Below, piece by piece: positions 9,397-48,577 of a stretch of DNA of 64,000 bases. Each line of letters begins with the position of its first letter. Positions within the stretch are counted from its first letter, which is position 1. The position numbers and the translations under genes are program-made. Source of the DNA: Candidatus Multivoradales bacterium (lineage in GTDB: Bacteria > Acidobacteriota > Thermoanaerobaculia > Multivoradales > J023); assembly GCA_965248925.1 (NCBI GenBank), contig CBDFLE010000005.1, positions 1,024,001-1,088,000 of the forward strand. The letters are read 5' to 3'. A model generated the notes under the pieces. The model saw only the letters and a list, made by a program, of their open reading frames with translations, did not search any database and was not told the DNA's origin.

Positions 9397-9978
9397 ATGG
9401 CAACAAGTTCTGGCGAGGTCACGGAGCTGCTCCGGGCGTGGGAGAAGGATCCGGAAGCACTCGATCGGCTACTTCCGCTGGTGATGGAAGAGGTGCGCAC
9501 GCTGGCTCGTAGGGCGCTGTTGGGGGAAGGTCGCGGCTATTCGCTGGAACCCACCGAGCTGCTTAACGAGGTCTATCTGCGTCTGGTTGGCCGCAAGGTC
9601 TACTGGTGGAAGAACCGCGCCCAATTCTTCAGTATCCTGGCCGAGCTGATGCGGCGCATTCTGGTCGATCGAGCCCGCCGCCGGCTGGCCGCCAAGCGCG
9701 GCAGCGGCGCCGAGAAGCTGAGTCTGGATGAAGGTATCTTCGCCGCTGACCAGCCCGACCCACAGCTGATCTTGCTCGACGACGCGCTGCAGCAGCTGAA
9801 GAAGCTGGATCCGATGAAGTACAAGATCGTTTCCCTCAGCTTCTTCGTCGGCCTGAGCCAGAAGGAGACCGCCAAAGAACTCGGCGTGTCGGTCAATACC
9901 GTTGGCCGTCACTGGCAGGCAGCCCGCCTGTGGCTGCAAACCCAGATGTTGCAGAGCGACAATCAGGGCACAAAGTGA
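9397..9978 (+). CDS. ECF sigma factor, kinase-associated type (TIGR02999-like)
   Basis: VTELLRAW, SLEPTELLNEVYL, MRRILVDRAR...KRG and a region 4 HTH. Overlaps the downstream kinase gene. Confidence 0.9.
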   Translation: MATSSGEVTELLRAWEKDPEALDRLLPLVMEEVRTLARRALLGEGRGYSLEPTELLNEVYLRLVGRKVYWWKNRAQFFSILAELMRRILVDRARRRLAAKRGSGAEKLSLDEGIFAADQPDPQLILLDDALQQLKKLDPMKYKIVSLSFFVGLSQKETAKELGVSVNTVGRHWQAARLWLQTQMLQSDNQGTK

Positions 9979-12377
9979 GCCAAGACAGTGGCCAGGAGCT
10001 GGATCTCCTTTTCCGGGCCCTTGATGTACCGACTGCAGAAAGAGTCGACTTCCTGCGCCGAGAGTGCCCGGAGGACGCGGCTCTGGCCCAGCGAGTTTTC
10101 GCCATGTTGGCCAGCCAGGACACCGCCAGCCTGATCGACCAGCCCCTCTTCGATATCCACCAGGAAGAGCCCCTGCCGGTCGAGAAGATTGGCTCCTACC
10201 GGCTGCTGAAACGCCTCGGTCGCGGCGGTATGGGTTCAGTCTTTCTCGCCGAGCGCGAAGATTTCGCACAGCGGGTGGCGTTGAAAGTCATCCGCCGCGG
10301 CCTCGATCTGGACGCTGGACTGGTGCGCCGCTTTCACAACGAGCGCCAGATCCTGGCGCGCTTGCAACACAAGAATATCGCTCAGGTCTTCGATGGTGGC
10401 ACCGTCAGCGATCGGCTGCCCTACTTCGTCATGGAGTACGTCGAGGGCGAGCCGATCAATGCCTACTGCTTGCGGCAGCGGCTCGGAATTCCAGAGCGGC
10501 TCGAGCTTTTCCGCCAAGTCTGCGACGCGGTGGGCTACGCGCATCAAAACCTGGTGGTCCATCGCGACCTCAAACCCAGCAACATCTTGATCACCGCTAG
10601 CGGCGAGCCCAAACTGCTCGACTTCGGAGTCGCCAAGCTGCTTGACGAGAGTGTCGCCAACACCCCCCTGGCCACCGTGACCGGGCAGGCGCCAATGACC
10701 CCGCGCTACGCCAGCCCGGAGCAAATCAAAGGCGAATCGATCACCACGGTCGCCGACGTCTACTCGCTCGGAGTGCTGCTCTACGAGCTACTCACCGGCC
10801 TTAGTCCCTACCGGGTCGACACCGACATCGAGCACGATCTGGCGCGCGCGGTCTGCGAGCAAGAGCCAGATCGCCCCAGCACCGCCGCGCGTCGCCGCTC
10901 CAACGAGCACACATTGGTGATCGCCGACCGACTCGACCGCAAACTCAGCGGCGACCTCGACGCCATCGTATTGAAGGCAATCCGCAAAGAGCCTGAGCAG
11001 CGGTATGGCTCGGTCGAGCAGCTGGCGGAGGATATCGGCAGATATCTGGAGGGAATGCCGGTTGAGGCACGGGCTGGGACGTGGGCCTACCGAGCGACAA
11101 GATTCAGCCGCCGGCACCGGATCGGCCTAGCGACCGCCCTTGCCTTCGTCATACTGTCGATCAGCTACGGTCTACACGCCAACTATCTCGCTCGGCAATC
11201 CGAGGAGCAAAAGGAGATTGCCGAGAAGCAGAAGGAAATCGCCGAGAAGCAGAAGGAAAATGCCGAGAGAACGCTTGAGTTCCTGAAATCACTGTTCCTG
11301 GAAGCTTCGCCCGATGCAGTAGCAATATCCAAGCTGTCGGCGATCGACCTGCTGCGCCGAGGCAAGGACAGGGTCCTCAACCAAGAGCTAGCCAGCCACC
11401 AATCCAGAGAGGTGATTGCCGGAGACCTAGGTTCCTTGTTCCGAGAACTTGGTTACTACGATGATTCCCAACAGCTCATGCAGCGCGCCCTAGAACTTGC
11501 ACTTGATAACCATCCTTCTCCCCATCAAGACATTGCAAGAAGACTCAATAACCTCGCTGTGGTCTACCACGAGTTCGACAAATATGACGACGCAGCGAAG
11601 CGCTTCAGAGAAGTCCTGCAGATGAAGGAGGTGCTCAAGCAGACTGCCCAGCAGATCTTCAAAGCGAAGAGCAACCTCGCATCCGCCTTGATGCACGCTG
11701 GGCATCCGCGGCAAGCCGAAATTCTCTTCGAGGAAGTATTGGTGGGCCGCAGAGCGCTCTACAAGAACTCAGAAACTGATCTGAATCTTGCTTCGAGCTA
11801 TCAAAATTCTGCTGCCAACCAACTTCAATTAGGCAATCTTGACCGAGCCCTAGAAAGATCCCAGAGAGCCCTTAGCGCTCGACGCAAGAGCAAGAAACCC
11901 ACATTCGTCGCCGATTCGCTGCACCTCATCGGCAAGATATGGCTCGAAAAAGGCGACAGTTCGCAAGCGAGAATCTCATTCAGTGAGTCGTTTAGTATCC
12001 GTGATATTCATTTGAAGAGCGACCACCGAAAGATCTCTCTCTCCAAGCGCTTTCTCTCAGAGTCCCTTCTTGAAACCGATCTCGATACCGCCGAAGTCCG
12101 CCTCGATCAAGCTATCGCAGCTCTTTCGAAGTCCCCTGATCCGGGCTGGCGCATGGCGGATTTTCTGAGTGTCAAAGGGGAACTCAGATCGCGCCAAGGT
12201 GATCCCGAGGAGGCAGCGATTCTACTACAACAAAGTTACGATCGCCTTCGCGAGATTCGCGGGCCGCAAGTCTGGGTTACCCGACGTGCCAAGGCCCGTC
12301 TGCAGGAGTTCCTACAGGCGGGCCCAAGCGATCAAATGCCCCTCTACCAGGCCGAAGTGTCGACCCGCAGCCCATAG
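9975..12377 (+). CDS. Hanks-type Ser/Thr kinase with TM helix and C-terminal TPRs
   Basis: LGRGGMG, VALK, HRDLKPSN, DFG, YASPEQ, a TM segment and TPR-like LNNLA repeats. GTG start overlaps the ECF stop. Confidence 0.9.
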   Translation: MSQDSGQELDLLFRALDVPTAERVDFLRRECPEDAALAQRVFAMLASQDTASLIDQPLFDIHQEEPLPVEKIGSYRLLKRLGRGGMGSVFLAEREDFAQRVALKVIRRGLDLDAGLVRRFHNERQILARLQHKNIAQVFDGGTVSDRLPYFVMEYVEGEPINAYCLRQRLGIPERLELFRQVCDAVGYAHQNLVVHRDLKPSNILITASGEPKLLDFGVAKLLDESVANTPLATVTGQAPMTPRYASPEQIKGESITTVADVYSLGVLLYELLTGLSPYRVDTDIEHDLARAVCEQEPDRPSTAARRRSNEHTLVIADRLDRKLSGDLDAIVLKAIRKEPEQRYGSVEQLAEDIGRYLEGMPVEARAGTWAYRATRFSRRHRIGLATALAFVILSISYGLHANYLARQSEEQKEIAEKQKEIAEKQKENAERTLEFLKSLFLEASPDAVAISKLSAIDLLRRGKDRVLNQELASHQSREVIAGDLGSLFRELGYYDDSQQLMQRALELALDNHPSPHQDIARRLNNLAVVYHEFDKYDDAAKRFREVLQMKEVLKQTAQQIFKAKSNLASALMHAGHPRQAEILFEEVLVGRRALYKNSETDLNLASSYQNSAANQLQLGNLDRALERSQRALSARRKSKKPTFVADSLHLIGKIWLEKGDSSQARISFSESFSIRDIHLKSDHRKISLSKRFLSESLLETDLDTAEVRLDQAIAALSKSPDPGWRMADFLSVKGELRSRQGDPEEAAILLQQSYDRLREIRGPQVWVTRRAKARLQEFLQAGPSDQMPLYQAEVSTRSP

Positions 12378-14096: not shown

Positions 14097-14945
14097 ATGG
14101 AGCTATTCCGCACTCTCGGCTGTCTGCTCGAGACACCGACCCCCGAGACTGACCGCCTCGCTCAGCTACTCGACCTTGGCCCGCCGCCGTCAGCGGCTGA
14201 GCACACGGCGGTTTTTGTGCTCGAACTCTACCCCTATGCTTCGGTCTATCTGGGAGAGGGCGGCAAGCTCGGCGGCGAAGCCCGCGATGCGATCGCCGGC
14301 TTCTGGCGCGTACTGGGTGAAGAGCCACCGAAGGAGCCCGACCACCTGGTCGTTCTGCTGGCGACTTACGCCCGCCTGGCCGAACTCGAGGACCAAGACC
14401 TACGGCACACTGAGCGCTGGCGCCATGCGCGTCTGGCTTTTCTCTGGGAGCACCTGCTGAGCTGGCTGCCGATCTACCTCGACAAGCTGGCGCAGGCCGA
14501 GTTCCCCTTCTATCGCCGCTGGTCCGAAGTGGCCCGACAAGCCTTGAATTCCCAAGCCGACGAGATCGACGCTCCTCCAGCCCTGCCCCTTCACTTGCGC
14601 CGAGCAGCTCAGCTGGCGGATCCCCGGCAGGCCGGTGCCGAAGCGTTTCTCAGAGACCTGCTCAGCCCGGTACAGAGTGGCCTGCTGCTGACCCGAAGCG
14701 ATTTGGCCCGCCTTGGCGAGGAGCTGGATCTGGGTCTGCGGCGGGGCGAGCGCCGCTTTCAGCTCAACGCCCTGCTCGGCCAAGATGGCGCTGGGGTCTT
14801 GGCCTGGCTGGCGGACTACGCCGGCCAGCCAGGCGGGCGATTCCCGGCGCCGGCCAAGGTGATCAAGAACCACTGGCAGCAGCGGCGGCACACTACCGCG
14901 AAGCTCCTCGAAGAGCTCTCCATCGAGCAAGCTCGTTCAGCATAG
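14097..14945 (+). CDS. TorD/DmsD-family chaperone
   Basis: PYASVYL, EPDHL, FLWEHLLSW motifs. Confidence 0.8.
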   Translation: MELFRTLGCLLETPTPETDRLAQLLDLGPPPSAAEHTAVFVLELYPYASVYLGEGGKLGGEARDAIAGFWRVLGEEPPKEPDHLVVLLATYARLAELEDQDLRHTERWRHARLAFLWEHLLSWLPIYLDKLAQAEFPFYRRWSEVARQALNSQADEIDAPPALPLHLRRAAQLADPRQAGAEAFLRDLLSPVQSGLLLTRSDLARLGEELDLGLRRGERRFQLNALLGQDGAGVLAWLADYAGQPGGRFPAPAKVIKNHWQQRRHTTAKLLEELSIEQARSA

Positions 14946-15435
14946 ACCTCGACCAAGAAGGAACCTGAAGAGGCGGTGATCACCCAGACTCGCAGCAGTC
15001 GGAATAGAATCAAGCGCACAGAGTCAAACTCAGATTCGGGTATGGGCGAGATCGGTCAAGAGTATGGACGAGATCTGCATCAGCTATCACTTTGCTTTCC
15101 AATGCAAAGTCTGGGGGAGAAGGGAGCAGGCGTGATGGCGAGATGGCAGGGTTGCAAAAGGGTCGCCTCCCGATAGTGTGACAGGGTAAGGATGATGCCG
15201 GAAGTGAACCCTCAAGCCGGCCGCAGTGACGCCCTACGAGGACGATGCAGACCGGTAGCGACAAACCACCCCTTCGGGTAGCGACGACATCCTTGCTTCA
15301 GTGAAAGGATGGGCCCGTGCTCAGGACGGAGTACGGCAGTCCCGCCTCAAGTAGTCCCGAGTCGCACTCGGCTCTGGGGATTTGGGCTTGCGCTTCGGAC
15401 AGACCGGGATCGGGAGCGAAGGTGAGGTGGTGCCA

Positions 15436-15903
15436 GTGAAACGAGTACAGCAAATCCTAAGAAGCTTGATGAGTTCGACGCCTGACCTCGAAGGCGCCAC
15501 GGTGGTGACTCCGGACGGCCGAGCGTTGGCCTCGACGTTTCCGGCGGGGACCGACCAGGACCGGGTCTCCGCGATGGCGGCGGCCCTGCTCTCGCTCGGT
15601 GAGCGAATCGCTGGCGAACTCGAGCGCGGCGTGTTGGAGCAGATCTACGTCAAAGGAAGCAGTGGCTACACCGTTCTGATGCATGCGGACGGCGAGTGGG
15701 TCTTGGAAGTAGTTACCGGGCCGCTGGCGAGGTTGGGAATGGTACTGCTCGAAATGGAAGAAGCGGTGCGACATCTCAACGAAATGTCCGACCTGGCCAA
15801 GAGCACCCAGGAGATCGTACTCGCCAAAGGTACCCAGGAACTCTCGATACCTGCCACCAATGCCAGCGACACTGCTGGCACCCTATTCGAATCCAGGTAC
15901 TAA
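15436..15903 (+). CDS. Roadblock/LC7 (MglB-like) protein 1
   Basis: VVTPDG..LAS, DRVSAMAAALLSLGER, GVLEQIYVKG, RLGMV. Has a ~35-aa C-terminal extension. Confidence 0.88.
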   Translation: MKRVQQILRSLMSSTPDLEGATVVTPDGRALASTFPAGTDQDRVSAMAAALLSLGERIAGELERGVLEQIYVKGSSGYTVLMHADGEWVLEVVTGPLARLGMVLLEMEEAVRHLNEMSDLAKSTQEIVLAKGTQELSIPATNASDTAGTLFESRY

Positions 15904-15922
15904 ACGACAGAAAGGAGATTGC

Positions 15923-16291
15923 ATGGCAACGCGAGCAGAAGCGATGCAGCAAACGCTGAAGAATCTGGTAGCCAACACACCGGACCTAGAAGGTGCCGCG
16001 ATGGTCAGCACTGACGGTCTGGTGTTGACCTCGGTCTTGCCGGCGGGGACCGATGAGGACCGGGTCTCCGCGATGGCGGCGGCCCTGCTCTCGCTCGGTG
16101 AACGCACCGCTGGCGAGTTGGAGCGCGGCGAGCTGGAGCAGATCTACGTCAAGGGAGCCAACGGCTATATCGTACTGATGCAGGCCGGCACCGACACGGT
16201 CTTGGAGGCCATCGCCGGACAGTCGGCGAAGCTCGGCATGGTGCTCCTCGAGATGAAGCGAGCAGCCCACGAGCTTGTCAGGATCGTCTAG
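15923..16291 (+). CDS. Roadblock/LC7 (MglB-like) protein 2
   Basis: AAGGAG RBS, VSTDGL, DRVSAMAAALLSLGER, KLGMVLLEMKR. Confidence 0.92.
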   Translation: MATRAEAMQQTLKNLVANTPDLEGAAMVSTDGLVLTSVLPAGTDEDRVSAMAAALLSLGERTAGELERGELEQIYVKGANGYIVLMQAGTDTVLEAIAGQSAKLGMVLLEMKRAAHELVRIV

Positions 16292-16296
16292 TAGCA

Positions 16297-16722
16297 ATGC
16301 CTTCCTCGGCCGAGCTGCTCAAGGACTGTCTCTTCTCTCTGACCACCCGAGTGCAGGAGATCCGGGCGCTGTCGCTGGTCGACCGCAACGGTCTGCCCCT
16401 GGTCTCTACGCTGGGCACCGGAGCGTTGGAGGAGATGCTGGCGGCGTTCGGCGGCTCGATCTGGACCCAGCTCGACCGCGCGCAACAGGACTTCCAGATG
16501 GGGCCGCTCTATCAGGCACATATCATCGGACGGGACCGGCAGATCTTTGTCACCCCGATAAATCAAGACGCGGCGCTGGTGGCCATGGTTGAGTCCTACG
16601 CCACCGCGGCCACCATCACCATGCATCTACTGGCCCTTTCCCGCACCGTAGCGCAACACCTACCAGAATCACTGGCCGCCAGCGATGAAGCCGTCGCCAA
16701 CTCAGTGAGTCACAAGACCTAG
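16297..16722 (+). CDS. Roadblock/LC7-like protein 3 (divergent)
   Basis: LVDRNGLPLVS, LAA.G, G.L.Q..I.G pattern. Operonic spacing. Confidence 0.75.
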   Translation: MPSSAELLKDCLFSLTTRVQEIRALSLVDRNGLPLVSTLGTGALEEMLAAFGGSIWTQLDRAQQDFQMGPLYQAHIIGRDRQIFVTPINQDAALVAMVESYATAATITMHLLALSRTVAQHLPESLAASDEAVANSVSHKT

Positions 16723-16731
16723 GAGAATTCG

Positions 16732-17292
16732 ATGAAGGCGACTCTGGAGCATCTGATCTCGTTGACCGGTCACACGGAGGAGGACTTCGAGATCCTCGGG
16801 CGCCACGCTGCGATCACGCAGCAGTGGGCCGACGACGCCGTGCAGGCCTTTTACGACACCCTATTCGCCTACCCGCCCACCTCGGTAGTCTTCCGCGAGG
16901 GCGAGCGCCCGGAGCGTGAGGCCACCCTGCGCGCCTGGTACCTGGAGGTCACCAGCGGCACAATCCGCGGCGACTTCTGGAACCATCAGTGGATCGTCGG
17001 CCTAGTCCACATCAAGCGCCAGGTCACCAACAGCTTCATGATCTCGATGGTCAGCCGGCTGCAGCTGGTGTTTCTCGAGAAGTGCCTCGCGACGCTCGAT
17101 CAAGCCGCGGCGGAGGCCGTCTTCGGAGCCTTCAAGCGGGTCACCGACATCGTGCTGGGGCTGATCGCAGAGGGTTACCATCAGGGCTACATCGAAGCGG
17201 TGACCGACGTCACTGGCATGAACGCGGCGTTGATCGACCGCATGGCAGACGTAGCGGTCGACAAGCTGCTTACCAAAGCCCGTCAAGGCTGA
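16732..17292 (+). CDS. Stand-alone protoglobin / sensor-globin domain protein
   Basis: G.TEED...L, FYD.LF (B10 Tyr), L.AWY, VGLVH (proximal His). AGGAG RBS. Confidence 0.85.
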   Translation: MKATLEHLISLTGHTEEDFEILGRHAAITQQWADDAVQAFYDTLFAYPPTSVVFREGERPEREATLRAWYLEVTSGTIRGDFWNHQWIVGLVHIKRQVTNSFMISMVSRLQLVFLEKCLATLDQAAAEAVFGAFKRVTDIVLGLIAEGYHQGYIEAVTDVTGMNAALIDRMADVAVDKLLTKARQG

Positions 17293-17310
17293 GCAGGAGC
17301 CTGTACCGAC

Positions 17311-17838
17311 ATGGCGAGAGGACTCGGGCCGCCACCCTGCGGCGGCACCACAGTGCGCGGCAAGGTCGTGATCCTCGGTGCAGCCGAGGCCGGCAAGAGC
17401 ACGCTCATCACCACCCTCTGCCCAAACAGCATGAACCTCCACGTCGACGGCCGGACGGTGGCGATGGACCATGGCATGCTGAGTCGAGGAAGCAGCTGTC
17501 TCTCGTTGGTCGGTGTCCCCGGGCAACAGCGCTTTGCCGCCGTCCGAGATGCTCTCGTCGCCCACGCGCTGGCCGCGGTCTGGGTCCATGCCGCCGGAGC
17601 GGAGACAGATCTGTCGACCACCGAGCTGATCCGCCGGACCGCTCTACCCTATCTGGTGTACGTCAATCTCCATGGTCGCGGAGGAGGAGAGTGGTTGACG
17701 CCGACGGTGCTACGACGCCCGCGCGCGGTGCTCGTCGGCGACCTGCTCGATCCGATGCGTAGCGAGGTGGACACTTTGAAGATGGGAATCTGGAAGCTCG
17801 CTGCCGAGCTTCCGATCGGCGCCGGCAGCTCCTCTTGA
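17311..17838 (+). CDS. MglA-like small GTPase with degenerate G4
   Basis: GAAEAGKST P-loop, TVAMDHG, GVPGQQRF. NLHG is found where NKxD is expected. Confidence 0.8.
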   Translation: MARGLGPPPCGGTTVRGKVVILGAAEAGKSTLITTLCPNSMNLHVDGRTVAMDHGMLSRGSSCLSLVGVPGQQRFAAVRDALVAHALAAVWVHAAGAETDLSTTELIRRTALPYLVYVNLHGRGGGEWLTPTVLRRPRAVLVGDLLDPMRSEVDTLKMGIWKLAAELPIGAGSSS

Positions 17839-17906
17839 AGGAATAGAAGACGCCGGGTTGACGATTCGAGCGGTTTGCGATCTTGTCGAGGGAGGGCGAG
17901 GGTGGC

Positions 17907-18311
17907 ATGACTACAACTAATGACATGGTCGCGAGTCTAATGTCCAACATCCCGCAAATCACCTCTTGCGGAGTCTTGGACTTGGAGACCAGCAAGTGGC
18001 GGCGACTGGTGCACGGACGCAGCGACCCGGAGGAGCTTCTCGACTTCGTGGCCCTTTCGGTCAAGAAGATTTTCGGCGGAGATCGGGTCAAGACCATCAA
18101 GACCCTCCTCGATGAGCACTCTACGAACCGGCCGCGCCAAAGAGAGTTCGAGGAAGTCATCCTGCGGTCGACCAACTTCTTACATGTGTTTCTGCGCCTG
18201 CATCATGAGCCTGGCACTGCGCTCTGCGCAGTGGTGTCGGGGGATGTCAAGCTAGGAATCGTCCTCAATCTGATGCGTACCGCCATCGATCGGGCCGCTG
18301 GCCCGCCATGA
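17907..18311 (+). CDS. Hypothetical protein, possibly roadblock/profilin-like fold
   Basis: GVLDLET, FEEVILRSTNFLHVF, VKLGIVL pattern. Last gene of the operon. Confidence 0.6.
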   Translation: MTTTNDMVASLMSNIPQITSCGVLDLETSKWRRLVHGRSDPEELLDFVALSVKKIFGGDRVKTIKTLLDEHSTNRPRQREFEEVILRSTNFLHVFLRLHHEPGTALCAVVSGDVKLGIVLNLMRTAIDRAAGPP

Positions 18312-18432
18312 CCTTTCGCCAGGTCGGCGGTGATCCTGCGCCGGCTCGGCAAGAATTCCGGAACTCCCGCGACCCACCGCCGTATCAGCAAGGGATCGAA
18401 CGCCGAGTCCACGCCCGACGCCCCAGAGATCT

Positions 18433-19698
18433 ATGCCCAGCGCCTCAACCACCTACGACGCCGTCGTCATCGGCGCCGGCCCCGCCGGTTCGACCGCCGC
18501 TACACTGGTGGCGAAGGCCGGCCATCGGGTGCTGCAGCTGGAGCGGGCGAATTTTCCTCGCTTCAAAGTCGGCGAATCACTGATTCCGGCGACTTACGAT
18601 GTGCTCCGCCGGCTCGGCATGTTGCCGCGGCTGCGCGGCGGACGTTTCGTCGAGAAACACAGCGTGCAGTTCTACTCCGGTGATGGCCGCGCCGGTCGGC
18701 CGTTCTACTTTCACGAGACCGACCCCAGTGAGCGCTCGCAAACCTGGCAAGTGCTGCGCAGTGAGTTCGATCAAATGATGTTGGAGAATGCTCGCCAGCA
18801 CGGTGTAGAGGCCCAGGAGGGAGTCGGTGTGCGGCAAGTGCTGTTCGATGAGCAACAGCGGGCGGTGGGGGTGGAGGCGCGGTTCGCCGACGGCGAGCAA
18901 CGGCGATTTAGCGCCCGAGTGGTCATCGACGCCTCCGGACAGCGTTCTCTGCTGGCCCGCAAGCTGGGCCTGCGGGTGACCGACGAACGGCTGAAAATGG
19001 CTTCGATCTTCACCCATTTTGAAGGCGGCCAGCGCGATCCGGGAATCGACGAAGGGGCGACTTTGATCTGTCACAGCGAGGGCAGCAAGTCCTGGCTGTG
19101 GTACATCCCGATGCCGGACAACATGGTCTCGGTCGGCGTGGTCGGGCCGATTCCTCATTTGATCCACGGCCGCCAAGGCAATCCCCAGCAAGTGCTCGAT
19201 GAAGAGATCGCCCGCTGTCCCGGAGTCCAACCGCGGCTCGTCGGCGCCCGCCAGGCGCTCGAGGTCAAGGTGCTGAACGACTTCTCCTACGTCTCGAGCC
19301 AGCTAGCTGGCGACGGCTGGGTGCTCGCTGGCGATGCCTTCGGCTTCCTCGACCCGATGTACTCCACCGGGGTACTGCTGGCCCTCAAATCTGGCGAAAT
19401 GGCCGGCGACGCGGTCGCCGCGGCACTCAGCCAAGGAGATACCTCAGCCGCTCGGCTAGGGGGTTTCGAAGCCACTCTGCGCGGTGGCCTGAACGCCTTT
19501 CGCCGCCTGATCTTCGCCTTCTACTCTCCCAAATTCAGCTTCGGCCGCTTCTTGAAGAGGTTTCCCGAACACCGTCCGCAGGTGGTCGACATCTTGGTCG
19601 GCGATGTCTTCGAACGAGACTTCGAACGCTTCTTCCACGACCTGGAAGGAATGCTCGGCGCGGCCACCAACAGCGACAAAGCGGAGATGGACGCTTGA
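18433..19698 (+). CDS. FAD-dependent oxidoreductase, flavin-dependent halogenase-like
   Basis: GAGPAG, FPRFKVGESL, WLWYIP (WxWxIP), GDAFGFLDPMYSTG. Confidence 0.85.
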   Translation: MPSASTTYDAVVIGAGPAGSTAATLVAKAGHRVLQLERANFPRFKVGESLIPATYDVLRRLGMLPRLRGGRFVEKHSVQFYSGDGRAGRPFYFHETDPSERSQTWQVLRSEFDQMMLENARQHGVEAQEGVGVRQVLFDEQQRAVGVEARFADGEQRRFSARVVIDASGQRSLLARKLGLRVTDERLKMASIFTHFEGGQRDPGIDEGATLICHSEGSKSWLWYIPMPDNMVSVGVVGPIPHLIHGRQGNPQQVLDEEIARCPGVQPRLVGARQALEVKVLNDFSYVSSQLAGDGWVLAGDAFGFLDPMYSTGVLLALKSGEMAGDAVAAALSQGDTSAARLGGFEATLRGGLNAFRRLIFAFYSPKFSFGRFLKRFPEHRPQVVDILVGDVFERDFERFFHDLEGMLGAATNSDKAEMDA

Positions 19699-21059
19699 GC
19701 AACGCGGCCCCGCAGGCACCACTGAAGATCGCCTTCATCACCGCCGGCGCGGCGGGCATGTACTGCGGCTCCTGCATGCACGACAATACTCTGGCTCGAC
19801 AACTGATGGGCCGCGGCCATGATGTCTCGTTGATGGCCCTCTACACGCCGCTGCGCACCGACGAGGAAAACGTCACCCTCGACCGTGTGTTTTACGGCGC
19901 GATCAATATCTACTTGCAGTCCAAGCTGTCTTTCTTCCGCCACACTCCGCGGCTGATCGATTGGTTGCTCGACCGACCCCGTCTACTAGGTTGGGCGGCC
20001 AAGCTGGGCTCTTCGACCGCTGCCTCGGAACTTGGCGACATCACCTTGGCCACTTTGCAAGGAGCCGACGGCCCGCAAGCTAAGGAACTCGATCGCCTGG
20101 TCGCCTGGTTGCGCGACGACCTACGCCCCGACCTGGTCCACCTCTCGCAGACCCTGATGCTCGGCCTGGCACCGCGCCTGGGCGAGGAACTGGGGGTACC
20201 GATCACTTGCGCGCTGCTCGGCGAGGACATCTTTCTCGATGGCCTGCGCGAGCCCTTTCACTCGCAAGTGCTGGAGATCATGCGCCGCAATGCCCGTCAG
20301 GTGGCGGCCTTTATCGCCCCCTGCCAGTATTTCGCCGACTTGATGGGAGAGCAGCTCGATCTGGATGAGACCAAAATCCACCAGGTGCCCTTGGGGGTCG
20401 ACAACCAGGATTTCAACAGCCCGCCACCGACCCCTCGCCCCGTCGACCGCGTCACTCTCGGCTACCTGGCGCGAATGTGCCCTGAGAAGGGTTTCCACCT
20501 GCTGCTCGACGCCTTCCGCCGGCTGGCCAGCGAGGATCCTCGACTCCGGCTCGAGGTCGCCGGCTACCTCGGCGGCGGTGATCGGGCCTATTTCGAGGAA
20601 CAGCGGCGGCGAGTCGCCGCCTGGGGGCTCGAAGATCGAGTGCGATTTCACGGTGAGGTCGACCGCGCCGGCAAGATCCGCTTGCTGCACAGCCTCGACC
20701 TCTTCTCGGTGCCGTCGGTCTATAGCGAGCCCAAAGGACTGTCAGTTCTTGAAGCGATGGCTGCCGGGGTGCCCGTGGTGGTCCCTGAGCATGGCGCGTT
20801 CCCGGAGATCCTCGGCGCCACCGGCGCCGGTTTGCTAGTCGAACCCGGTTCGGTGGATTCGCTGGTCACTGGACTGCGTCGCCTGATCGCCGATCCAGAT
20901 CAGCGCCGGCACCTGGGGGAACAGGGGCGGCGAGCGGTTGAGCACGGAGCCTATGGCGCTTCAGCGATGGCCGTGGCCACCCTGGACGTCTTCCACCAGG
21001 TGCTTGCCACGGGCGCAACCGAAGTCGAACAGGAACTGAGCCTCGGCGCTACGGGCTGA
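19695..21059 (+). CDS. Glycosyltransferase family 4
   Basis: YLARMCPEKG, EPKGLSVLEAMAAG. N-terminal MYCGSCMHDN motif. Confidence 0.9.
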   Translation: MSNAAPQAPLKIAFITAGAAGMYCGSCMHDNTLARQLMGRGHDVSLMALYTPLRTDEENVTLDRVFYGAINIYLQSKLSFFRHTPRLIDWLLDRPRLLGWAAKLGSSTAASELGDITLATLQGADGPQAKELDRLVAWLRDDLRPDLVHLSQTLMLGLAPRLGEELGVPITCALLGEDIFLDGLREPFHSQVLEIMRRNARQVAAFIAPCQYFADLMGEQLDLDETKIHQVPLGVDNQDFNSPPPTPRPVDRVTLGYLARMCPEKGFHLLLDAFRRLASEDPRLRLEVAGYLGGGDRAYFEEQRRRVAAWGLEDRVRFHGEVDRAGKIRLLHSLDLFSVPSVYSEPKGLSVLEAMAAGVPVVVPEHGAFPEILGATGAGLLVEPGSVDSLVTGLRRLIADPDQRRHLGEQGRRAVEHGAYGASAMAVATLDVFHQVLATGATEVEQELSLGATG

Positions 21060-21092
21060 AGCGGCAAGACTCAAGTAGGCTACGATCTGCCG

Positions 21093-21527
21093 ATGTATGA
21101 ATTCCGCACTAGTCGCCGGATCGAATTCGCCGATACCGACATGGCCGGCATCGTCCACTTCAGTCGCTTCTTCGTCTTCATGGAAACCGCCGAGCATGAG
21201 TTTCAGCGCTCCTTGGGCTCGGCGGTGCATTTTCAACACGAGGGAGTTGAGATCGGCTGGCCGCGGGTCGAGGCCAACTGCCGCTACCGCAGCCCGGCAC
21301 GGCTCGGCGATGAACTCGATATTCACTTGCGGATCCTGCGCAAGGGTCGCCGGTCGCTGACATACAGTTTCGATATCCGCTGTGGCGAGCGCTTAGTGGC
21401 CGAGGGGCGCTTGTCGATGATCTGCTGTGCCCTCGAGCCTGGACAGCCGCCGCGGCCAGTGGCCATTCCCTCCTTTCTGGCGGAGCGGCTGGAACAAGCG
21501 CCCGACAACGCTAAGATGCAGGCTTAA
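21093..21527 (+). CDS. Acyl-CoA thioesterase (4HBT/YbgC hotdog)
   Basis: FADTDMAGIVHFSRF, CRYRSPAR. Confidence 0.9.
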   Translation: MYEFRTSRRIEFADTDMAGIVHFSRFFVFMETAEHEFQRSLGSAVHFQHEGVEIGWPRVEANCRYRSPARLGDELDIHLRILRKGRRSLTYSFDIRCGERLVAEGRLSMICCALEPGQPPRPVAIPSFLAERLEQAPDNAKMQA

Positions 21528-21537
21528 ACCAACCCAC

Positions 21538-21612
21538 AGGAAAACAAGTGCCAGGAGAACAAGTGCTAGGAGAACAAGTGCTAGGAGAACAAGTGCTAGG
21601 AGAACAAGTGCC
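21538..21612 (+). repeat. 5 x 15-bp tandem repeat AGGAGAACAAGTGC(T/C)
   Basis: Units start at 21538, 21553, 21568, 21583 and 21598. The first unit has one A-for-G variant. Confidence 0.97.
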
Positions 21613-22297
21613 GCCCACGCCGCAGATCTCGCTCAAGGTTTCCAACTTGTTCAAGGACTTCGCCACCGGACAACAGACTGTCGAAGTGCTGCGAGGCATC
21701 ACTCTTGAAATGCGGGCTGGTCAATCGCTCGCCGTCACCGGGCCTTCAGGATCCGGCAAGAGCACTTTGCTGCATTTGATCGGCACCCTCGATGTGCCCA
21801 GCCGCGGCGAGATCACCATCAACGGTGAGAACCCCTTTGCCCTCAGCGAACCGCGGCTGGCGCGCTTCCGCAATCGCCAAATTGGCTTCGTCTTCCAAGA
21901 CCACCACTTGCTGCCACAATACTCAGTGCTGGAAAACGTGCTGGTACCGACCCTGGCCCACGGTTCGCCGGATGGCGACGCCGAGGATCGCGCGCGCCAT
22001 CTACTCGGCCGGGTCGGCTTGGAGCACCGCCTCCTGCATCGGCCAGGGGAGTTGTCCGGCGGCGAGCGCCAGCGAGTGGCGGTGGCGCGGGCCCTGATCC
22101 AACGACCGGCGCTGCTGCTCTGTGACGAACCCACCGGCAGCCTTGATCAACACACCGCCATGATGGTTGGCGATCTGCTCGCCGAATTACACCAGGAGGA
22201 GCAAAACATTCTCATTGTGGTCACCCACAGCCCGGAGTTAGCACACCGCTTCACCCGCCGCTTCGAATTGCGTGAGGGCACATGCGCGCTACTCTGA
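21548..22297 (+). CDS. ABC transporter ATP-binding protein (LolD/MacB type)
   Basis: GPSGSGKST, LSGGERQR, LLCDEPTG, VVTH. The start could be any GTG from 21548 to 21608. Confidence 0.95.
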   Translation: MPGEQVLGEQVLGEQVLGEQVPPTPQISLKVSNLFKDFATGQQTVEVLRGITLEMRAGQSLAVTGPSGSGKSTLLHLIGTLDVPSRGEITINGENPFALSEPRLARFRNRQIGFVFQDHHLLPQYSVLENVLVPTLAHGSPDGDAEDRARHLLGRVGLEHRLLHRPGELSGGERQRVAVARALIQRPALLLCDEPTGSLDQHTAMMVGDLLAELHQEEQNILIVVTHSPELAHRFTRRFELREGTCALL

Positions 22298-41784: not shown

Positions 41785-44334
41785 ATGACCGGCATTGATT
41801 GGCTACGGGCCAAGGAGCTCTTTCTGGAGTTGGCGGAGCTTGACGAGGGCTCTCGGCGAATGCACTTGAACGTTCTCGCCCAGCATGAATCGGAACTCGC
41901 TGATCAAGTCCGCTCCTTGCTCCGTCACGACACCGAAGGTCTCTCACCGACGGTTGCAGCCGGAGCCCTGGCCAAGACATTGGATCAGGCTCAGGACCGG
42001 CTCTGGGCTCAGCGGCGGCTGGGTCGCTACCGGCTCAAGAAGAAACTCGGCCAGGGCGGCATGGGAGTGGTCTACCTCGCTGAGCGGGCGGATCGAGAGT
42101 TCGAGAAAGAGGTGGCGCTGAAAGTGCTGCCGCTGGGCCTCGACACGCCCCTGGCGATCGACCGCTTCCGCCGCGAACGTCAGATCTTGGCGATGCTCGA
42201 GCATCCGGCGATCGCCCGTCTCCTGGACGGTGGCACCACCGACGACGGCCTGCCCTTCTTGATGATGGAGTACGCCCCGGGGCTACCGATCACCGATTAC
42301 TGCGAGCAGCAGCGGCTGCCCATAAGACAGCGCATCAAGCTGCTGCTGGAGGTCTGTGCGGCGGTCAGCTTCGCCAACGCCAATCTGGTGGTCCACCAAG
42401 ATCTGAAACCAAGCAACATCCTGGTCGACGCCGGCGGCAAACCGAAGCTACTCGACTTCGGTATCGCCAAGCTACTCGACGACCCAGCGGCCGAGCAGAC
42501 CCAGGTTCTCGCCTTGACCCCGGGCTACGCCAGCCCGGAACAACATGCCGGCGGACCGATCACCACCGCCAGCGACGTCTATTCACTGGGCGTCCTGCTG
42601 GGCGAGCTGCTGACCGGCCAGCGCCCGCGAACCGCCAACCCCCATGACTCTCTCGCCCCCTACAGTCTGACAGCCAAGCTCTCAGGCGACCTCGACAGCA
42701 TCGTCGACAAGGCGTTGCGCGAGAACCCGGCCGAACGCTACGGCTCGGTCGATCGTCTGGCCGGGGATCTGCGCCGCTACCTCGCAGGCCAGCCGGTCGA
42801 AGCCCGGCCGCCGACCTTCGTCTACCATGCCGGTAAGTTCCTCCGCCGCCATCGCTGGGCAGCTTCGACAGCTATTGCTTTCGCCTCCCTGCTGGTGGCT
42901 TTCTCCGTCTCTTCACTGCTCCAAGCACGCGCCACGGCACGCCAGCGCGACCGCGCGGAAGCGGTCTCTGACCTGCTCACTGAAGCCTTCCTCCAGGCAG
43001 ACCCATCACATAGCCGCCGCGGCGACGTCAGCGCGCGGGAGATCCTCGCCATCGGCAGCAGGATGGTGCGGAGGAAGCTGCGAAATGAGCCTCAAGTCAT
43101 GGCCGAGATGCTGCACACCATCGGCTCCGTGCAGTCTGCATTGGGCCTTTATCAAGAGGCCACCACCAACCTCGACGAGGCTGGCCTGCTACGCCGGCAG
43201 CTCAGTGGCGACGACAGCGCCAGCTCGGCCTCGACCGAACTCGAACAAGCACGATTGCACTATTTTCGCGCCAACTTCGACTTGGCAGAGGAGATCGCCC
43301 GCCGGGCCGCGGGCAAGCTGCGCCGCTACCGCTCGCCGGCAGTCGCGGAGGCGACCCACCTGATCGCCGACATCGTCTACAGCAGGGGTGACAAGGGTGC
43401 TCGCGACCGGGGCGTGGCGCTCCACCTTCAGGCGCTGGCAGAGAATGCGGCTCTGCTGGGCGAGGACAGCCTGCAGCATGCTGAAGGTCTATGCCGCTTG
43501 GCGGGCGCCTTGGGGCCCCATGGTCAGCGTCAGGAAGCTGCCGAGCTCTACCGACAATCCCTCTCTCTGCTCAACCGCTTGGCTCCGCCGAGCATCCGAC
43601 AGCAGCCCTTGCACTGCGCCAGCTAGCCTTCACCCAAGGCAGTCTGGGAGAGCTCGATTCAGCCCTCAGGTTGAGCCAGATGGCGCTCGCCATGGCCCAG
43701 CGGCTCTACGGCGGGAGCCACCCTTCAGTCGCTGAGGCGCTCAATGCGTTGGGCAGCGTTCACGTCGACCGGGGCGACCTCGAAGCCGCGACAGAGCAAT
43801 TCGAGGAAGCGTTGAGAATCCGCAAGAGAATCTATGGCGACGACAGTCCCAGGCTGTCGGTGGCGCACAACAACCTAGCCGTGGTGTATCGGGAATCTCG
43901 GTCGGCCGGAAGCCGCCGAGCCCCAGTTCCGCCGCGCCCTGGGGCTGCATCTGGCGGTCTCTGGCGCGGAGAACGTCCAGGCCGGGATGTTCTCCGCCAG
44001 CCTGGGAGAGACCCTGATCCACCTGAACAGGCTCGAAGAAGCTGAGTCACTGCTGCGTCAGGCGGTCGGCATCTTCGAGCGCCACTCTCGGGACGGCAAG
44101 AACGGCCGCAACGCCTGCATCGCCACCGCCGACCTCGGCGGCGCCCTGCTGCGGCAAGGGGAGATTGCCCAGGCGGAGAAGCTCCTCGGCCCCTGCCATC
44201 GCCTGCTCAGCAGCCAGCTGCGGCTGCCACCACGATTCAGGTTCCGTGCCACTGGCTGTCTGGTGGAGCTCTACTAGCAGACCGGTCGCGACGAATCGGC
44301 CGCCGAGCTAAATGCTTTGATCCACCTGCACTGA
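41785..44334 (+). pseudogene. Ser/Thr kinase-TPR gene with two frameshifts and a nonsense codon
   Basis: Kinase motifs present but HQD replaces HRD. The TPR region continues in other frames after about 43578 and 43895. In-frame TAG at 44275-44277, next stop at 44332-44334. Confidence 0.8.
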
Positions 44335-45550: not shown

Positions 45551-45973
45551 GTGCGCGAGGACTACCGGTGGTATTTCTGTGCTGGGTGTCGAGCCTCGGT
45601 CGAGATCTGCTCGCACTGTGACCGGGGGCAGATTTACTGTGGCCAGGAGTGCTCCAGCGCCGCCCGCCGCGAGTCCTTGCGAGTTGCTGGTTGGCGCTAC
45701 TGCCAGACCCCTCAAGGTCGCCGAAATCAGGCCGAGCGGCAGGCCCGATGGCGTCAGCGCCAGCAGGCCGAAGCGCAGAAAGTAACGCATCAGGGTACCC
45801 CACCCCCAGAGCCCCCAGTCATCCTCACTACGCCACCCCCGAGTGGGTCCAAGGACCGCCTTGCCCCGCTCGGCGAGCCGCGATGCTGCTTCTGTGGCGT
45901 TCTCTGCCGTCCATTCGTCCGTCTGGATCCCCTCAGACGACGACGGCGGCGCAAACGGAGAGATCGAAGATGA
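45551..45973 (+). CDS. Cys-rich (putative zinc-binding), basic protein inside IS21
   Basis: CAGC..ICSHCDRGQIYC...C and CCFCG. Stop overlaps the istA ATG (ATGA). Confidence 0.7.
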   Translation: MREDYRWYFCAGCRASVEICSHCDRGQIYCGQECSSAARRESLRVAGWRYCQTPQGRRNQAERQARWRQRQQAEAQKVTHQGTPPPEPPVILTTPPPSGSKDRLAPLGEPRCCFCGVLCRPFVRLDPLRRRRRRKRRDRR

Positions 45974-48558: not shown

Positions 48559-48577
48559 ATACGTTCTTGCTCAGCCG

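Follow-up and report, generated by a model that had tools for sequence, protein, structure and literature searches.

Bacterial modules that combine a small GTPase with Roadblock/LC7 proteins are already known, namely, MglA/MglB and the conservons, and stand-alone sensor globins have been catalogued in globin surveys. In Myxococcus xanthus and Thermus thermophilus, the small Ras-like GTPase MglA is encoded with the Roadblock/LC7 protein MglB, and one report describes how roadblock dimers position the intrinsic Arg53 and Gln82 of MglA (PMC3199381). For the actinobacterial conservons (CvnA-D), in which a GTPase and a roadblock protein accompany the CvnA-type histidine kinase, stand-alone cytosolic accessory sensors that feed these G-protein systems are described, namely, CvnF (GAF) and the heme protein CvnE (P450) (PMC13343842). 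A globin and a roadblock module are directly coupled in HGbRL of Methylacidiphilum infernorum, a single polypeptide in which an FHb/Vitreoscilla-like globin is fused to Roadblock/LC7; this protein is reported from one genus only, and the same genome also carries an MglA-like GTPase/roadblock pair (PMC4476040). In the literature on globin-roadblock coupling, this fused protein is the sole precedent that we found. In the globin-coupled sensors (GCS), such as HemAT, AfGcHK, DosC, BpeGReg and GsGCS, the sensor globin is covalently joined to its transmitter, and in the eukaryotic Ragulator/EGO complexes several distinct roadblock-fold subunits serve one GTPase system (Rag/Gtr).

The operon described here consists of six tightly packed co-oriented genes at positions 15436-18311 on the plus strand of the window (the whole stretch of 64,000 nucleotides that was analysed). 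Like the MglA/MglB loci, it encodes a small Ras-like GTPase with Roadblock/LC7 proteins, and this GTPase has an Arg-Thr pair in the position of Arg53-Thr54 of MglA and the switch-II Gln in an xVPGQ motif; however, the GTPase is short, opens the G3 motif with G instead of T and lacks NKxD, and there are four roadblock-fold genes rather than one, plus a predicted heme globin. With the conservons (PMC13343842), the operon shares the GTPase-roadblock combination and a stand-alone cytosolic accessory sensor, of which CvnE is a heme-protein type. By contrast, it has no CvnA-type histidine kinase, none of its products could be recognised as a CvnC-type protein, and the globin would act directly on the roadblock/GTPase rather than on a kinase; identification of the operon as a conservon was rejected because the six products contain neither a kinase domain nor any further Pfam family. 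HGbRL is similar in coupling globin and roadblock modules in a genome with an MglA-like GTPase/roadblock pair, whereas the present globin is encoded by a separate gene, belongs to the S family and is linked to roadblock genes in many phyla, not, as reported for the FHb-type fusion, in one genus. The GCS have the same fold, Tyr B10 and proximal His as this globin, which nevertheless lacks a covalent transmitter; a roadblock protein encoded separately is presumed to take that part. The multiplicity of roadblock-fold proteins, which may form a hetero-oligomer, recalls Ragulator/EGO; in contrast to Rag/Gtr, the GTPase carries no roadblock domain at its C-terminus, and no p18/Ego1-like wrapping subunit was apparent.

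Composition of the operon

The genes encode, in order, Robl1, Robl2, Robl3, the globin, the GTPase and P6, with intergenic gaps of 19, 5, 9, 18 and 68 nt. The operon is flanked by 121 nt of free sequence behind P6 and by 490 nt ahead of Robl1; the latter segment (14946..15435), which follows a TorD/NarJ-like gene ending at 14945, is the presumed promoter region, and in it no Rfam family was matched, nor did a scan of 14500-19000 detect a sigma-70-like site. Robl1 (15436..15903, +; 155 aa with a C-terminal tail of ~40 aa) probably starts at GTG 15436, as previously proposed, and Robl2 (15923..16291, +; 122 aa) likewise at ATG 15923, with the Shine-Dalgarno sequence AAAGGAG ahead of it. The Pfam searches were run with the longest ORFs (including 15382-15903, 15860-16291, 16297-16722, 16732-17292 and 17311-17838). 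The first three of these each exceed the gathering cut-off of the Robl_LC7 family (PF03259; 23 bits), namely, Robl1 with 55.6 bits (4.5e-15), Robl2 with 70.0 bits (1.4e-19) and the divergent Robl3 (16297..16722, +; 141 aa) with 32.9 bits (5.5e-08). The whole 7.98-Mb genome yields four Robl_LC7 matches, three of them in this operon. Robl1 is a paralog of Robl2 (66% amino acid identity; 81.6% DNA identity over 206 nt), and Robl3 is only 15% identical to Robl1. The nearest solved structures to Robl2 are 7f8m (1.2e-24), 9jue and the conservon protein CvnB5 (3leq, 8.1e-10), to which it is related.

The last gene (17907..18311, +) encodes P6, which has no match in Pfam or NCBIfam and only 66 relatives among 1.84 billion representatives; translation from ATG 17907 gives 134 aa, equal in length to its library representative. 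Comparison of the P6 family profile with the roadblock profile using hhalign gave 95.6% (E 1.1e-8, 121 columns). The AF2 model of P6 (pLDDT 92.3) has the topology a-b-b-a-a-b-b-b-a, in agreement with the alpha-beta-beta-alpha-beta-beta-beta(-alpha) fold of roadblock proteins, and its top Foldseek matches were 3kye, 9jue, the p14/MP1 chains of Ragulator, MglB and MglC (best E 2.3e-7), all of the matches listed being Roadblock/LC7, MglB, MglC, Ragulator or dynein-LC7-containing entries. [quoted passage not shown] Genes of the P6 family, which is present in seven of the 401 genomes of the phylum, adjoin MglA/Arf-like GTPase genes in three other loci (L086, L104 and L105); in L107, the neighbour is a weak match to the GTPase profile that Pfam reads as an ABC-type P-loop protein.

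The GTPase (17311..17838, +; 175 aa) belongs to a short MglA-like subfamily of the Ras superfamily that is found in 3 of the 401 genomes. Its ORF scores above the cut-off of Pfam MMR_HSR1 (8.5e-05; 23.1 bits against 21.9) and under those of Pfam Ras (1.5e-3) and NCBIfam small_GTP (7.5e-07; 29.1 bits against 42.5). The P-loop reads GAAEAGKST, switch I contains R48-T49, and a GVPGQ motif with Q72 follows. The R48-T49 pair is invariant in all 17 subfamily sequences and aligns with the 'DRT' of the GTPase of locus L018, which matches T. thermophilus MglA at 1.1e-52 and whose RT corresponds to Arg53-Thr54; the GTPase thus appears to keep the intrinsic Arg-Thr pair of the MglA type, with a predicted catalytic role. 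In switch II of the subfamily, G68, P70, G71 and Q72 are invariant and V69 nearly so. GVPGQ fits the MglA-family G3 pattern [TG][VT]PGQ, which comprises TVPGQ in Group 1 and GTPGQ in Groups 2-5 (Wuichet and Sogaard-Andersen 2015, PMC4316618). The same work places in the MglA family genes no more than four genes away from an MglB/Roadblock gene (PMC4316618), and here the operon itself contains four roadblock-fold genes. The canonical NKxD is absent from the GTPase, VNLH taking its place, and in the G4 region of the subfamily only the Asn is invariant, with Asp at +3 in three of the 17 aligned sequences; since the guanine-specifying Asp is missing from this GTPase and from 14 of the 17, GTP specificity is not assured. 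With the GTPase sequence as the single query, a PDB search (E up to 0.1) yielded Ras alone, at E values no better than 0.03, and no MglA. A profile search matched small GTPases (best 8oun, 5.4e-08), with Asgard GTP-binding proteins and Rabs ranking first and no MglA among the best 60 of 328 matches. Elsewhere in the genome there is a separate canonical MglA, which matches that of M. xanthus at 1.6e-93 and is accompanied by a roadblock gene of its own.

The globin (16732..17292, +; 186 aa) matches the Pfam Protoglobin family (PF11563) at 3.6e-18 and 66.5 bits (cut-off 25) and is the only gene of this family found in the genome. F40, Y41 and H93 are invariant in all 21 aligned sequences; in the alignment with the AfGcHK globin, H93 falls on the His of 'rvHvrigl' and Y41 on the Tyr of 'fYd', and we take them to be the proximal His F8 and the distal Tyr B10, respectively. 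Heme would be bound through His93. The AF2 model (pLDDT 95.2) contains helices only, namely, a globin domain and one extra C-terminal helix. In Foldseek, it is best matched by AfGcHK (5ohf/5ohe, TMt 0.86-0.88), followed by 8h17, GsGCS and HemAT (E 1e-6 to 4e-5 for all of these), the TMt range being 0.76-0.88 for GCS sensor domains as opposed to 0.62-0.70 for protoglobins, and a sequence search of the PDB retrieved 8h17, AfGcHK and GsGCS and no protoglobin at E up to 0.1. The Pfam score, the sensor-type 3-on-3 fold of the model and the His and Tyr B10 residues together mark the protein as a predicted sensor (S-family) globin. It is not a protoglobin proper of the Methanosarcina/Aeropyrum type, the chains of which rank under the GCS sensor domains in Foldseek and are missing from the PDB search results. 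Neither is it a globin-coupled sensor, because the 186 residues make up the globin and one helix, with no fused transmitter; a globin without an attached transmitter is termed, in the globin nomenclature, a sensor single-domain globin (PMC7475203). All 53 near-length homologs span 111-228 aa, and a weak search found no longer relatives at E up to 1e-5; finding no fused globin-roadblock form of this family is likewise weak evidence.

Most of what the sequence-only reading had proposed for the individual genes holds. The six co-oriented, mostly closely spaced ORFs are all present (gaps of 5-68 nt), the three roadblock/LC7 genes stand on their Pfam scores, and the call of a small GTPase is upheld by MMR_HSR1 and by the retained Arg-Thr and xVPGQ motifs, with a degenerate NKxD. 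P6 is indeed a fourth roadblock-like protein by profile and model comparison, and Pfam detects neither a kinase nor a receiver or cyclase in any of the six proteins, as had been stated, nor any recognisable output component. The description of the globin as protoglobin-type was right as to the Pfam family and has to be amended as to the fold, the model being nearer to GCS sensor domains than to true protoglobins.

Linkage of the globin to roadblock genes in other genomes

The genomic context of this globin family was surveyed in the best 80 loci out of 98 confirmed relatives from other genomes. A roadblock gene is located within 1 kb of the globin on the same strand in 31 of the 80 loci and within 5 kb in 34, and in 19 loci an MglA-like GTPase gene is also present within 5 kb; the HMMs behind these counts were built partly from proteins of the same loci, and Pfam confirmed a subset. 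An independent jackhmmer pass gave a similar picture. Adjacency of the globin to roadblock and GTPase homologs, on which the sequence-only reading had staked its interpretation, is therefore conserved. The linked loci are labelled as Actinomycetota, Chloroflexota, WOR-3/Caldifarciminota, KSB1-like, Calditrichota, Bacteroidota, Deferribacterota, Pseudomonadota and Thermus, that is, about nine phyla, and cultured carriers on record are Thermus sp. JCM 17653, Millisia brevis and Propioniciclava flava. The globin and roadblock frames overlap by 4 nt in L064, L066 and L067 and are separated by 2-35 nt in L072, L076, L081, L014 and L029. On the globin tree, linkage switches 11 times (bootstrap range 10-13), with at least five switches forced by well-supported branches, so the linkage is not one inherited accident.

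The conserved unit in other genomes is the pair of a Robl2-type roadblock and the globin. Robl2 is 43-49% identical to the globin-adjacent roadblocks of nine loci (L014, L010, L029, L072, L033, L041, L022, L026 and L053), and Robl1 is 39-42% identical to globin-flanking roadblocks from other phyla; judged by these identities, Robl2 is of the roadblock type that adjoins this globin family elsewhere. Pfam identifies receiver, HATPase_c, HisKA, PATAN (DUF4388) and PAS domains in the globin-linked clusters of other phyla, and in the Chloroflexota clusters the GTPase, with a match of 1.1e-52 to that of T. thermophilus, is a true MglA.

In the remaining 46 of the 80 loci, including nine from Thermus, four from Aquificota and two from Thermofilaceae, there is no roadblock gene within 5 kb, about eight of these 46 having a flank of less than 1 kb on one side. 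The globin family thus also works, or at least is encoded, away from roadblock genes; the neighbours of the roadblock-free globins are unrelated and variable (57 proteins from 15 loci). Conversely, a relative (G031) possesses a cluster orthologous to the operon (RoblA 73% identical to Robl2, RoblB 50% to Robl3, GTPase 48%, P6 27%) that has no globin. Nor is there a globin in any of the 20 metagenome loci of the GTPase subfamily, half of which are shorter than 3.1 kb. These observations suggest that the globin is an add-on input and not a core part of the module. Among related genomes, the globin was found in 2 of 41, and G020, from the same family of organisms, has a second, divergent globin in the order GTPase-Robl-globin.

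A putative gas- or redox-responsive switch

We propose, with a probability of roughly 0.55, that the operon encodes a cytoplasmic switch of the MglA/MglB kind which has gained a heme sensor that acts in trans and is read by roadblock proteins. The core would comprise the GTPase, P6 and one roadblock each of the Robl2 and Robl3 types, to which the sensor globin, as a protein of its own, and a further copy of the Robl2 type (Robl1) would have been added in this genome. Having taken heme via His93, the globin, probably a dimer like the GCS sensor domains, would be altered by binding of O2, NO or CO or by a redox change of the iron, and the altered form would be sensed by a dimer of Robl2-type roadblocks (Robl1, Robl2 or both). 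The roadblocks could then shift the placement of the GTPase's own Arg48 and Gln72, in a GAP-like manner, or else hold or release the GTPase; either effect would determine its nucleotide state, and in its active form the GTPase would address an effector encoded elsewhere. In this scheme, heme binding, physical contact, the direction of the signal, the ligand and the output are all inferred, and the earlier interpretation of the locus as a gas/redox-controlled G-protein switch is partly supported.

The direction of the signal could conceivably be the opposite, with the GTPase and roadblocks controlling the location, oligomeric state or activity of a chemically working heme protein engaged in NO/O2 detoxification, O2 buffering or peroxidase-like chemistry. 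Linkage by itself says nothing about direction, members of this globin family are often found alone among metabolic genes, as would befit an enzyme or ligand carrier, and enzyme-like activities are reported for Protoglobin-family members (PMC4020757). We nevertheless consider a regulated globin unlikely, given that AfGcHK, GsGCS, HemAT, BpeGReg and DosC outrank protoglobins and NO-dioxygenase-type globins in the Foldseek comparison, that Pfam detects no reductase partner in the operon and that the linked clusters of other phyla are rich in REC, HATPase_c, HisKA, PATAN and PAS domains. The probability is far lower still that the globin-fold protein is a heme-free scaffold, a structural subunit of the roadblock complex similar to the N-terminal domain of Bacillus RsbR: heme-free globin-fold sensor modules of this kind do exist, yet the proximal His is replaced in RsbR (PMC4476040), whereas H93, F40 and Y41 are invariant here in 21 of 21 sequences.

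An equally improbable explanation is that the roadblock and GTPase proteins take part in heme loading or assembly of the globin instead of signalling. The genes are co-located with that of a cofactor protein, and 490 nt upstream there is a gene for a maturation chaperone of the TorD/NarJ type; against this, the chaperone is not recurrent among the neighbours scanned, the orthologous module of G031 and the 20 metagenome loci do without a globin, and in 46 of the 80 loci the globin stands apart from the module. A role in cofactor insertion is not known to us for any roadblock/MglA system. Least probable of all, in our estimate, is that the adjacency is functionally meaningless, a product of hitch-hiking or rearrangement. 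The cluster is rare in relatives (globin in 2 of 41 genomes, GTPase subfamily in 3 and P6 family in 7 of 401), a pattern consistent with horizontal acquisition; however, a roadblock gene lies within 1 kb in 31 of the 80 loci, with about nine phyla represented, often in overlapping or near-abutting frames, and with four roadblock matches in 7.98 Mb the chance that a random gene has one within 1 kb is well under 1%.

Beyond the switch proposed for this operon, sensor single-domain globins as a rule might be trans-acting gas/redox sensors that dock on Robl2-type dimers of Ras-like switches, placing MglA-type polarity/motility modules and their offshoots under oxygen control; this generalisation is tentative, and we regard it as somewhat doubtful. 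Candidates for such oxygen-controlled MglA-type modules are those of Chloroflexota and WOR-3 that include PATAN and receiver proteins, and the present operon would be among the offshoots. Should the generalisation be true, it would provide a route for aerotaxis or oxygen response in non-flagellar bacteria of about nine phyla and a bacterial parallel to the roadblock scaffolds that pass a metabolic signal to Rag GTPases.

The linkage of this globin family to roadblocks suggests an undescribed gas/redox input into a bacterial G-protein switch. With the globin as candidate input and the roadblock as candidate transmitter, each protein gains a testable role. If confirmed, the pairing would carry the principle of globin-coupled sensors over to partners that are not covalently joined, and prokaryotic G-protein signalling would gain an input that senses gases.

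The operon and its globin

The operon comprises six open reading frames on the + strand (15436-18311) that encode three Roadblock/LC7 proteins (Robl1, Robl2 and Robl3), a globin, a small GTPase and a sixth product, P6; the co-orientation and mostly tight spacing described in the sequence-only reading were confirmed, with intergenic gaps of 19, 5, 9, 18 and 68 nt and flanking gaps of 490 nt upstream and 121 nt downstream. Shine-Dalgarno-like purine runs precede the ATG codons at 15923 (AAAGGAG), 16732 (AGGAG), 17311 and 17907. Pfam recognizes Robl_LC7 in products 1-3 (55.6, 70.0 and 32.9 bits; cut-off 23) and Protoglobin (PF11563) in product 4 (66.5 bits; cut-off 25); product 5 matches small-GTPase models weakly, with MMR_HSR1 (23.1 bits) barely over its cut-off and Ras and Roc under theirs, and product 6 has no Pfam match. 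NCBIfam adds for the operon only a sub-threshold small_GTP match to product 5. A simple scan of the interval 14500-19000 found no promoter-like sites, and the terminator scan of the same interval returned a single terminator-like site, on the minus strand within Robl1, which is below the shuffle expectation; the Rfam scan of the whole window placed no family near the operon.

Upstream of the operon, across the 490-nt gap, lies a gene for a TorD/NarJ/DmsD-like redox-enzyme maturation chaperone (14097-14945, +; Pfam Nitrate_red_del, 2.3e-12), with no obvious molybdoenzyme partner adjoining it. Just 3' of the operon, also on the + strand (18433-22297), are genes for a FAD-dependent halogenase/geranylgeranyl-reductase-like protein, a GT4 glycosyltransferase whose start overlaps the halogenase-like gene by 4 nt, a 4HBT thioesterase, an ABC ATPase and a large FtsX/MacB-type permease; these genes did not recur among the neighbours scanned at other loci. 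Elsewhere in the window, the stretch 45649-51427 contains mobile elements. One is represented by a Mu-transposase-like ORF (45649-47469, +); another, a group II intron, has its reverse-transcriptase/maturase ORF at 48578-49969 (-) and matches Rfam group-II-D1D4-7 at 50410-50538 (-; 64 bits).

The globin consists of 186 aa and is the sole Protoglobin-family gene detected in the 7.98-Mb genome. A search of 5.8 billion proteins yielded 53 homologs of 111-228 aa, all with PF11563 as the sole domain, the full-length ones being 41-77% identical; longer, fused forms were not found at E <=1e-5, which, by the tool's own note, is weak evidence. In an alignment of 21 homologs, F40, Y41, H93 and ten more positions are invariant, and in the phmmer alignment to the globin domain of AfGcHK, Y41 falls on 'fYd' and H93 on the 'rvHvrigl' segment; from general knowledge of globins, we take the former to be Tyr B10 and the latter to be the proximal His F8. 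Only helices make up the AF2 model (pLDDT 95.2), and one of them (165-185) lies past the globin core. In Foldseek, the sensor domain of AfGcHK comes out on top (TMt 0.86-0.88, rmsd 1.7-2.1), followed by the Thermosynechococcus globin 8h17, GsGCS, HemAT, BpeGReg and DosC, and then by protoglobins proper (TMt 0.62-0.70). Because the sensor domains of globin-coupled sensors (GCS) rank above protoglobins proper, we rejected the identity of a true protoglobin in favour of a GCS-like sensor globin. The earlier description of a protoglobin-type globin without an output domain thus stands with respect to the PF11563 match and the lack of a transmitter, but the fold is nearer to GCS sensor domains. The all-helical model of only 186 aa, together with this ranking, indicates a sensor-family globin without a transmitter, a class described as the 'sensor single-domain globin' (PMC7475203).

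Linkage of the globin to roadblock and GTPase genes

When one genome per species was scanned by pattern, 98 relatives of the globin were confirmed, of which the best 80 were used with their flanks. Neighbours on the same strand were counted at E <=1e-4 among all ORFs of the 80 loci, with profiles from the alignments of this analysis; some of the proteins behind these profiles come from the very loci that were counted, an overlap that favours detection but not false positives. Among these best 80 of 98 relatives, a roadblock gene lies within 1 kb of the globin in 31 and within 5 kb in 34, and 19 have both a roadblock and an MglA-like GTPase gene within 5 kb, so the conservation of the globin beside roadblock and GTPase homologs, on which the original proposal was staked, held up on inspection. 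A P6-family gene was found near none of the 80 globins. An independent jackhmmer pass over the globin loci gave the same picture, and a Pfam rescan confirmed Robl_LC7 in five proteins of three linked loci (L018, L071 and L073). The linked loci carry about nine phylum labels, and their reading frames frequently abut or overlap by 4 nt. Typical gene orders are GTPase-Robl-globin (WOR-3, Thermus sp. JCM 17653, Methylohalobius), Robl-globin (Methylothermaceae, Actinomycetota) and Robl-globin-Robl (KSB1-like records); in Chloroflexota, genes for REC-HATPase_c, MglA, Robl, Robl and PATAN-Robl proteins are followed by one or two globins.

This linkage is not universal, the evidence against universality being the 46 of the 80 loci at which no roadblock gene was found within 5 kb of the globin (including nine from Thermus, four from Aquificota and two from Thermofilaceae), about eight of which are flanked on one side by less than 1 kb. 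At 15 of the unlinked loci, a scan of 57 neighbouring proteins showed them to be unrelated and variable. By raw count, four of five genomes with an unlinked globin encode a Robl2-type protein elsewhere; the genome of Thermus composti, whose globin is unlinked, contains no Robl2-type gene at E 1e-5. Mapped on a carefully built maximum-likelihood tree of 81 globins, the linked or unlinked state requires 11 changes (bootstrap 10-13), compared with a shuffled mean of 26.5, so that the linkage is clustered, yet was gained or lost many times; at least five of the 11 changes are forced by well-supported branches.

Tandem sensor globins, two or three in number, follow roadblock genes at eight loci (L018, L021, L027, L031, L032, L077, L033 and L041); the second copy is a divergent paralog in Chloroflexota, and three copies are present in Calditrichota. 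At two KSB1-like loci, the Robl-globin-Robl clusters are found among genes for B12-binding domain proteins, along with a URO-D/MtaA-like gene and a DUF1638 gene at one (L053) and a Tll0287-like protein and a further roadblock at the other (L004), a corrinoid-related context that may be worth a look.

The GTPase and the sixth product

The GTPase belongs to a compact subfamily (50 matches, mostly 143-205 aa) whose members share without exception a GxxEAGKST P-loop and, in switch I, G47-R48-T49; within the GVPGQ motif, G68, P70, G71 and Q72 are likewise invariant and V69 is nearly so. In a joint alignment, R48-T49 lies opposite 'DRT' of the GTPase from the Chloroflexota locus L018, which is clearly an MglA (1.1e-52 to that of T. 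thermophilus) and in which the RT pair, counted along the alignment, corresponds to Arg53-Thr54 of MglA; Arg53 is described as the intrinsic arginine finger of MglA and Thr54 as its gamma-phosphate Thr (PMC3199381). The GVPGQ sequence fits the G3 pattern given by Wuichet and Sogaard-Andersen for the MglA family, TVPGQ in Group 1 and GTPGQ in Groups 2-5 (PMC4316618), and so would be compatible with membership in that family, whereas VNLH in the place of NKxD speaks against a simple assignment. Of NKxD, the subfamily has lost the Lys and, in all but three of the 17 members aligned, the guanine-specifying Asp, but it retains the Asn, as it does the P-loop, the Arg-Thr pair and PGQ; nucleotide specificity may, to judge from these residues, be relaxed. 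Other globin-linked GTPases keep [NT]KQD or TQMD. As a single sequence, the GTPase retrieved from the PDB only Ras, at E 0.03 or weaker; with the subfamily profile, Asgard GTP-binding proteins and Rabs rank first. Another contig of the genome carries the gene for a canonical MglA (1.6e-93 to the M. xanthus protein; L089, G000:C6:2895000-2906000), adjoining the fourth Robl_LC7 gene of the genome, so the module in the window is an extra one beside the classical polarity pair.

For P6 (17907-18311, 134 aa), 66 relatives were found at E <=1e-3 in a set of 1.84 billion representatives, and its own representative is of the same length, which fits the start at 17907. Pfam finds Robl_LC7 in none of the 26 family members scanned, and a PDB profile search with the family gave only chance-level matches (E >=0.22); the roadblock fold is recognized by hhalign and Foldseek only. 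The 32-member P6 profile aligns with a 24-protein roadblock profile over 121 columns (95.6% probability, E 1.1e-8), and the AF2 model (pLDDT 92.3; helix, two strands, helices, three strands, helix) matches, among the entries listed by Foldseek, Roadblock/LC7 proteins, Asgard roadblocks, Ragulator p14/MP1, MglB, MglC and LC7-containing dynein complexes (best E 2.3e-7). The protein atlas places P6 among clusters without names; a roadblock cluster appears there at rank 21 (score 0.91), to be taken as a lead only. The suggested fourth roadblock-like protein was therefore borne out by the profile and structure comparisons, and the operon contains four roadblock-fold genes.

The P6 family is present in seven of the 401 genomes of the phylum. 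Among the 26 proteins scanned, the P6 domain forms the C-terminus of three Ser/Thr kinases and four DSP-type phosphatases, as well as of proteins that match Arf-like or DUF4388 (PATAN) models weakly. The 64-kb window itself encodes three Ser/Thr protein kinases that contain TPR regions (9930-12377, 41785-43626 and 56669-60436); Pfam detects no P6-type domain in them, such fusions being found in other organisms. In three of five regions read (L086, L104 and L105, with three P6 copies in tandem at L105), P6 adjoins MglA/Arf-like GTPase genes; its neighbour is a weak GTPase-profile match that Pfam reads as an ABC-type P-loop at L107, and a P-loop protein unrecognized by GTPase profiles at L106. 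One of these regions, on the same contig about 930 kb upstream of the window (L104, G000:C5:86000-102000), is a second P6 cluster with three P6-family domains, in a REC-PATAN(DUF4388)-P6 fusion and in P6 proteins of 143 and 170 aa; it also holds an Arf-like GTPase and an ABC-ATPase/DSP-phosphatase fusion protein.

Assembly of the operon and a candidate heme-globin input

The cluster is rare among relatives: the globin was found in two of 41 related genomes, that of the window included, and the GTPase subfamily in three of the 401 genomes of the phylum. A genome of the same order (G031) encodes a P6-like protein (27% identity to P6), the GTPase (48%) and two roadblocks, RoblA (73% to Robl2) and RoblB (50% to Robl3); no globin was found in it. 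In JGI metagenomes, a Robl2-type gene follows the subfamily GTPase at 13 of 20 loci and is itself usually followed by one of Robl3 type, and a globin was seen near the GTPase at none of the 20, half of the contigs being shorter than 3.1 kb. The closest relatives of the globin (63-77% identity) and of the GTPase (49-66%) appear to lie on shared contigs, as judged solely by equal sizes (P0006/P0055, 8528 nt; P0008/P0065, 15352 nt). Robl1 and Robl2 resemble globin-flanking roadblocks elsewhere (39-49% identity) and are paralogs (66% amino acid identity), Robl1 having a C-terminal tail of about 40 aa that is absent from Robl2; because their DNA is 81.6% identical over 206 nt, including a long near-identical stretch, the comparison suggests a recent tandem duplication or gene conversion. 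We interpret the operon as the product of a merger between a pre-existing GTPase/Robl2/Robl3/P6 module and a sensor pair of the 'Robl2-type + globin' kind.

In globin-coupled sensors, the globin passes heme ligation on to a transmitter. MglA is activated by roadblock dimers that position its own Arg and Gln (PMC3199381), actinobacterial G-protein systems are fed by stand-alone accessory sensors, the GAF protein CvnF and the P450 CvnE (PMC13343842), and in HGbRL of Methylacidiphilum infernorum a globin is fused to a roadblock domain (PMC4476040). The component proteins with their folds, the conservation of the heme-ligand residues and that of the linkage are the basis of a model in which the globin would bind heme and dock on a roadblock dimer of the Robl2 type, the action of the roadblocks on the GTPase would change with the ligand or redox state of the globin, and the GTPase would signal to an effector outside the operon. 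We put the probability of this model as a whole at roughly 0.55. The coupling of heme state to the GTPase proposed from the sequence is supported in part, by the cross-phylum gene linkage and the conserved heme-ligand residues, with heme binding, docking and signal flow as its putative steps. In a complex prediction for Robl1(1-125), Robl2, the globin and heme, run without controls, the globin as a partner scored 0.11, the mark being 0.32, a result that weighs neither for nor against binding. Given the same genes, the globin could instead be a regulated enzyme or carrier, which we consider unlikely; that a protein with invariant Y41 and H93 serves as a heme-free scaffold is quite improbable, and a role of the GTPase/roadblock module in maturation deserves equally little credence. 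Adjacency without meaning, for genes linked in diverse phyla, is the hardest of all to credit. Some of the probability is assigned to none of these explanations.

Membership in the conservons was rejected, as Pfam finds no kinase among the six products. In literature searches with subscription journals largely outside their scope, no publication on a protoglobin paired with a roadblock was found, and the HGbRL paper was the only one to connect a globin-coupled sensor with a roadblock. The matches listed for a globin with MglB, LC7, a small GTPase or a gene neighbourhood contained nothing further, and those for a sensor globin or protoglobin with PATAN, conservon or MglA contained no globin/G-protein pairing; a search for 'Tlr1989', the closest solved relative of the globin, found no literature. 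The word 'globin' has 0 occurrences in the survey of prokaryotic small GTPases (PMC4316618), whose supplementary neighbourhood tables, outside our scope, might list globins. An earlier description of an MglA/MglB-type G-protein module with a putative non-covalent heme-globin input was thus not found in these sources. The operon is of a known kind, an MglA/MglB-type G-protein module; the new part, to which the gene linkage across phyla points, is a candidate non-covalent heme-globin input.
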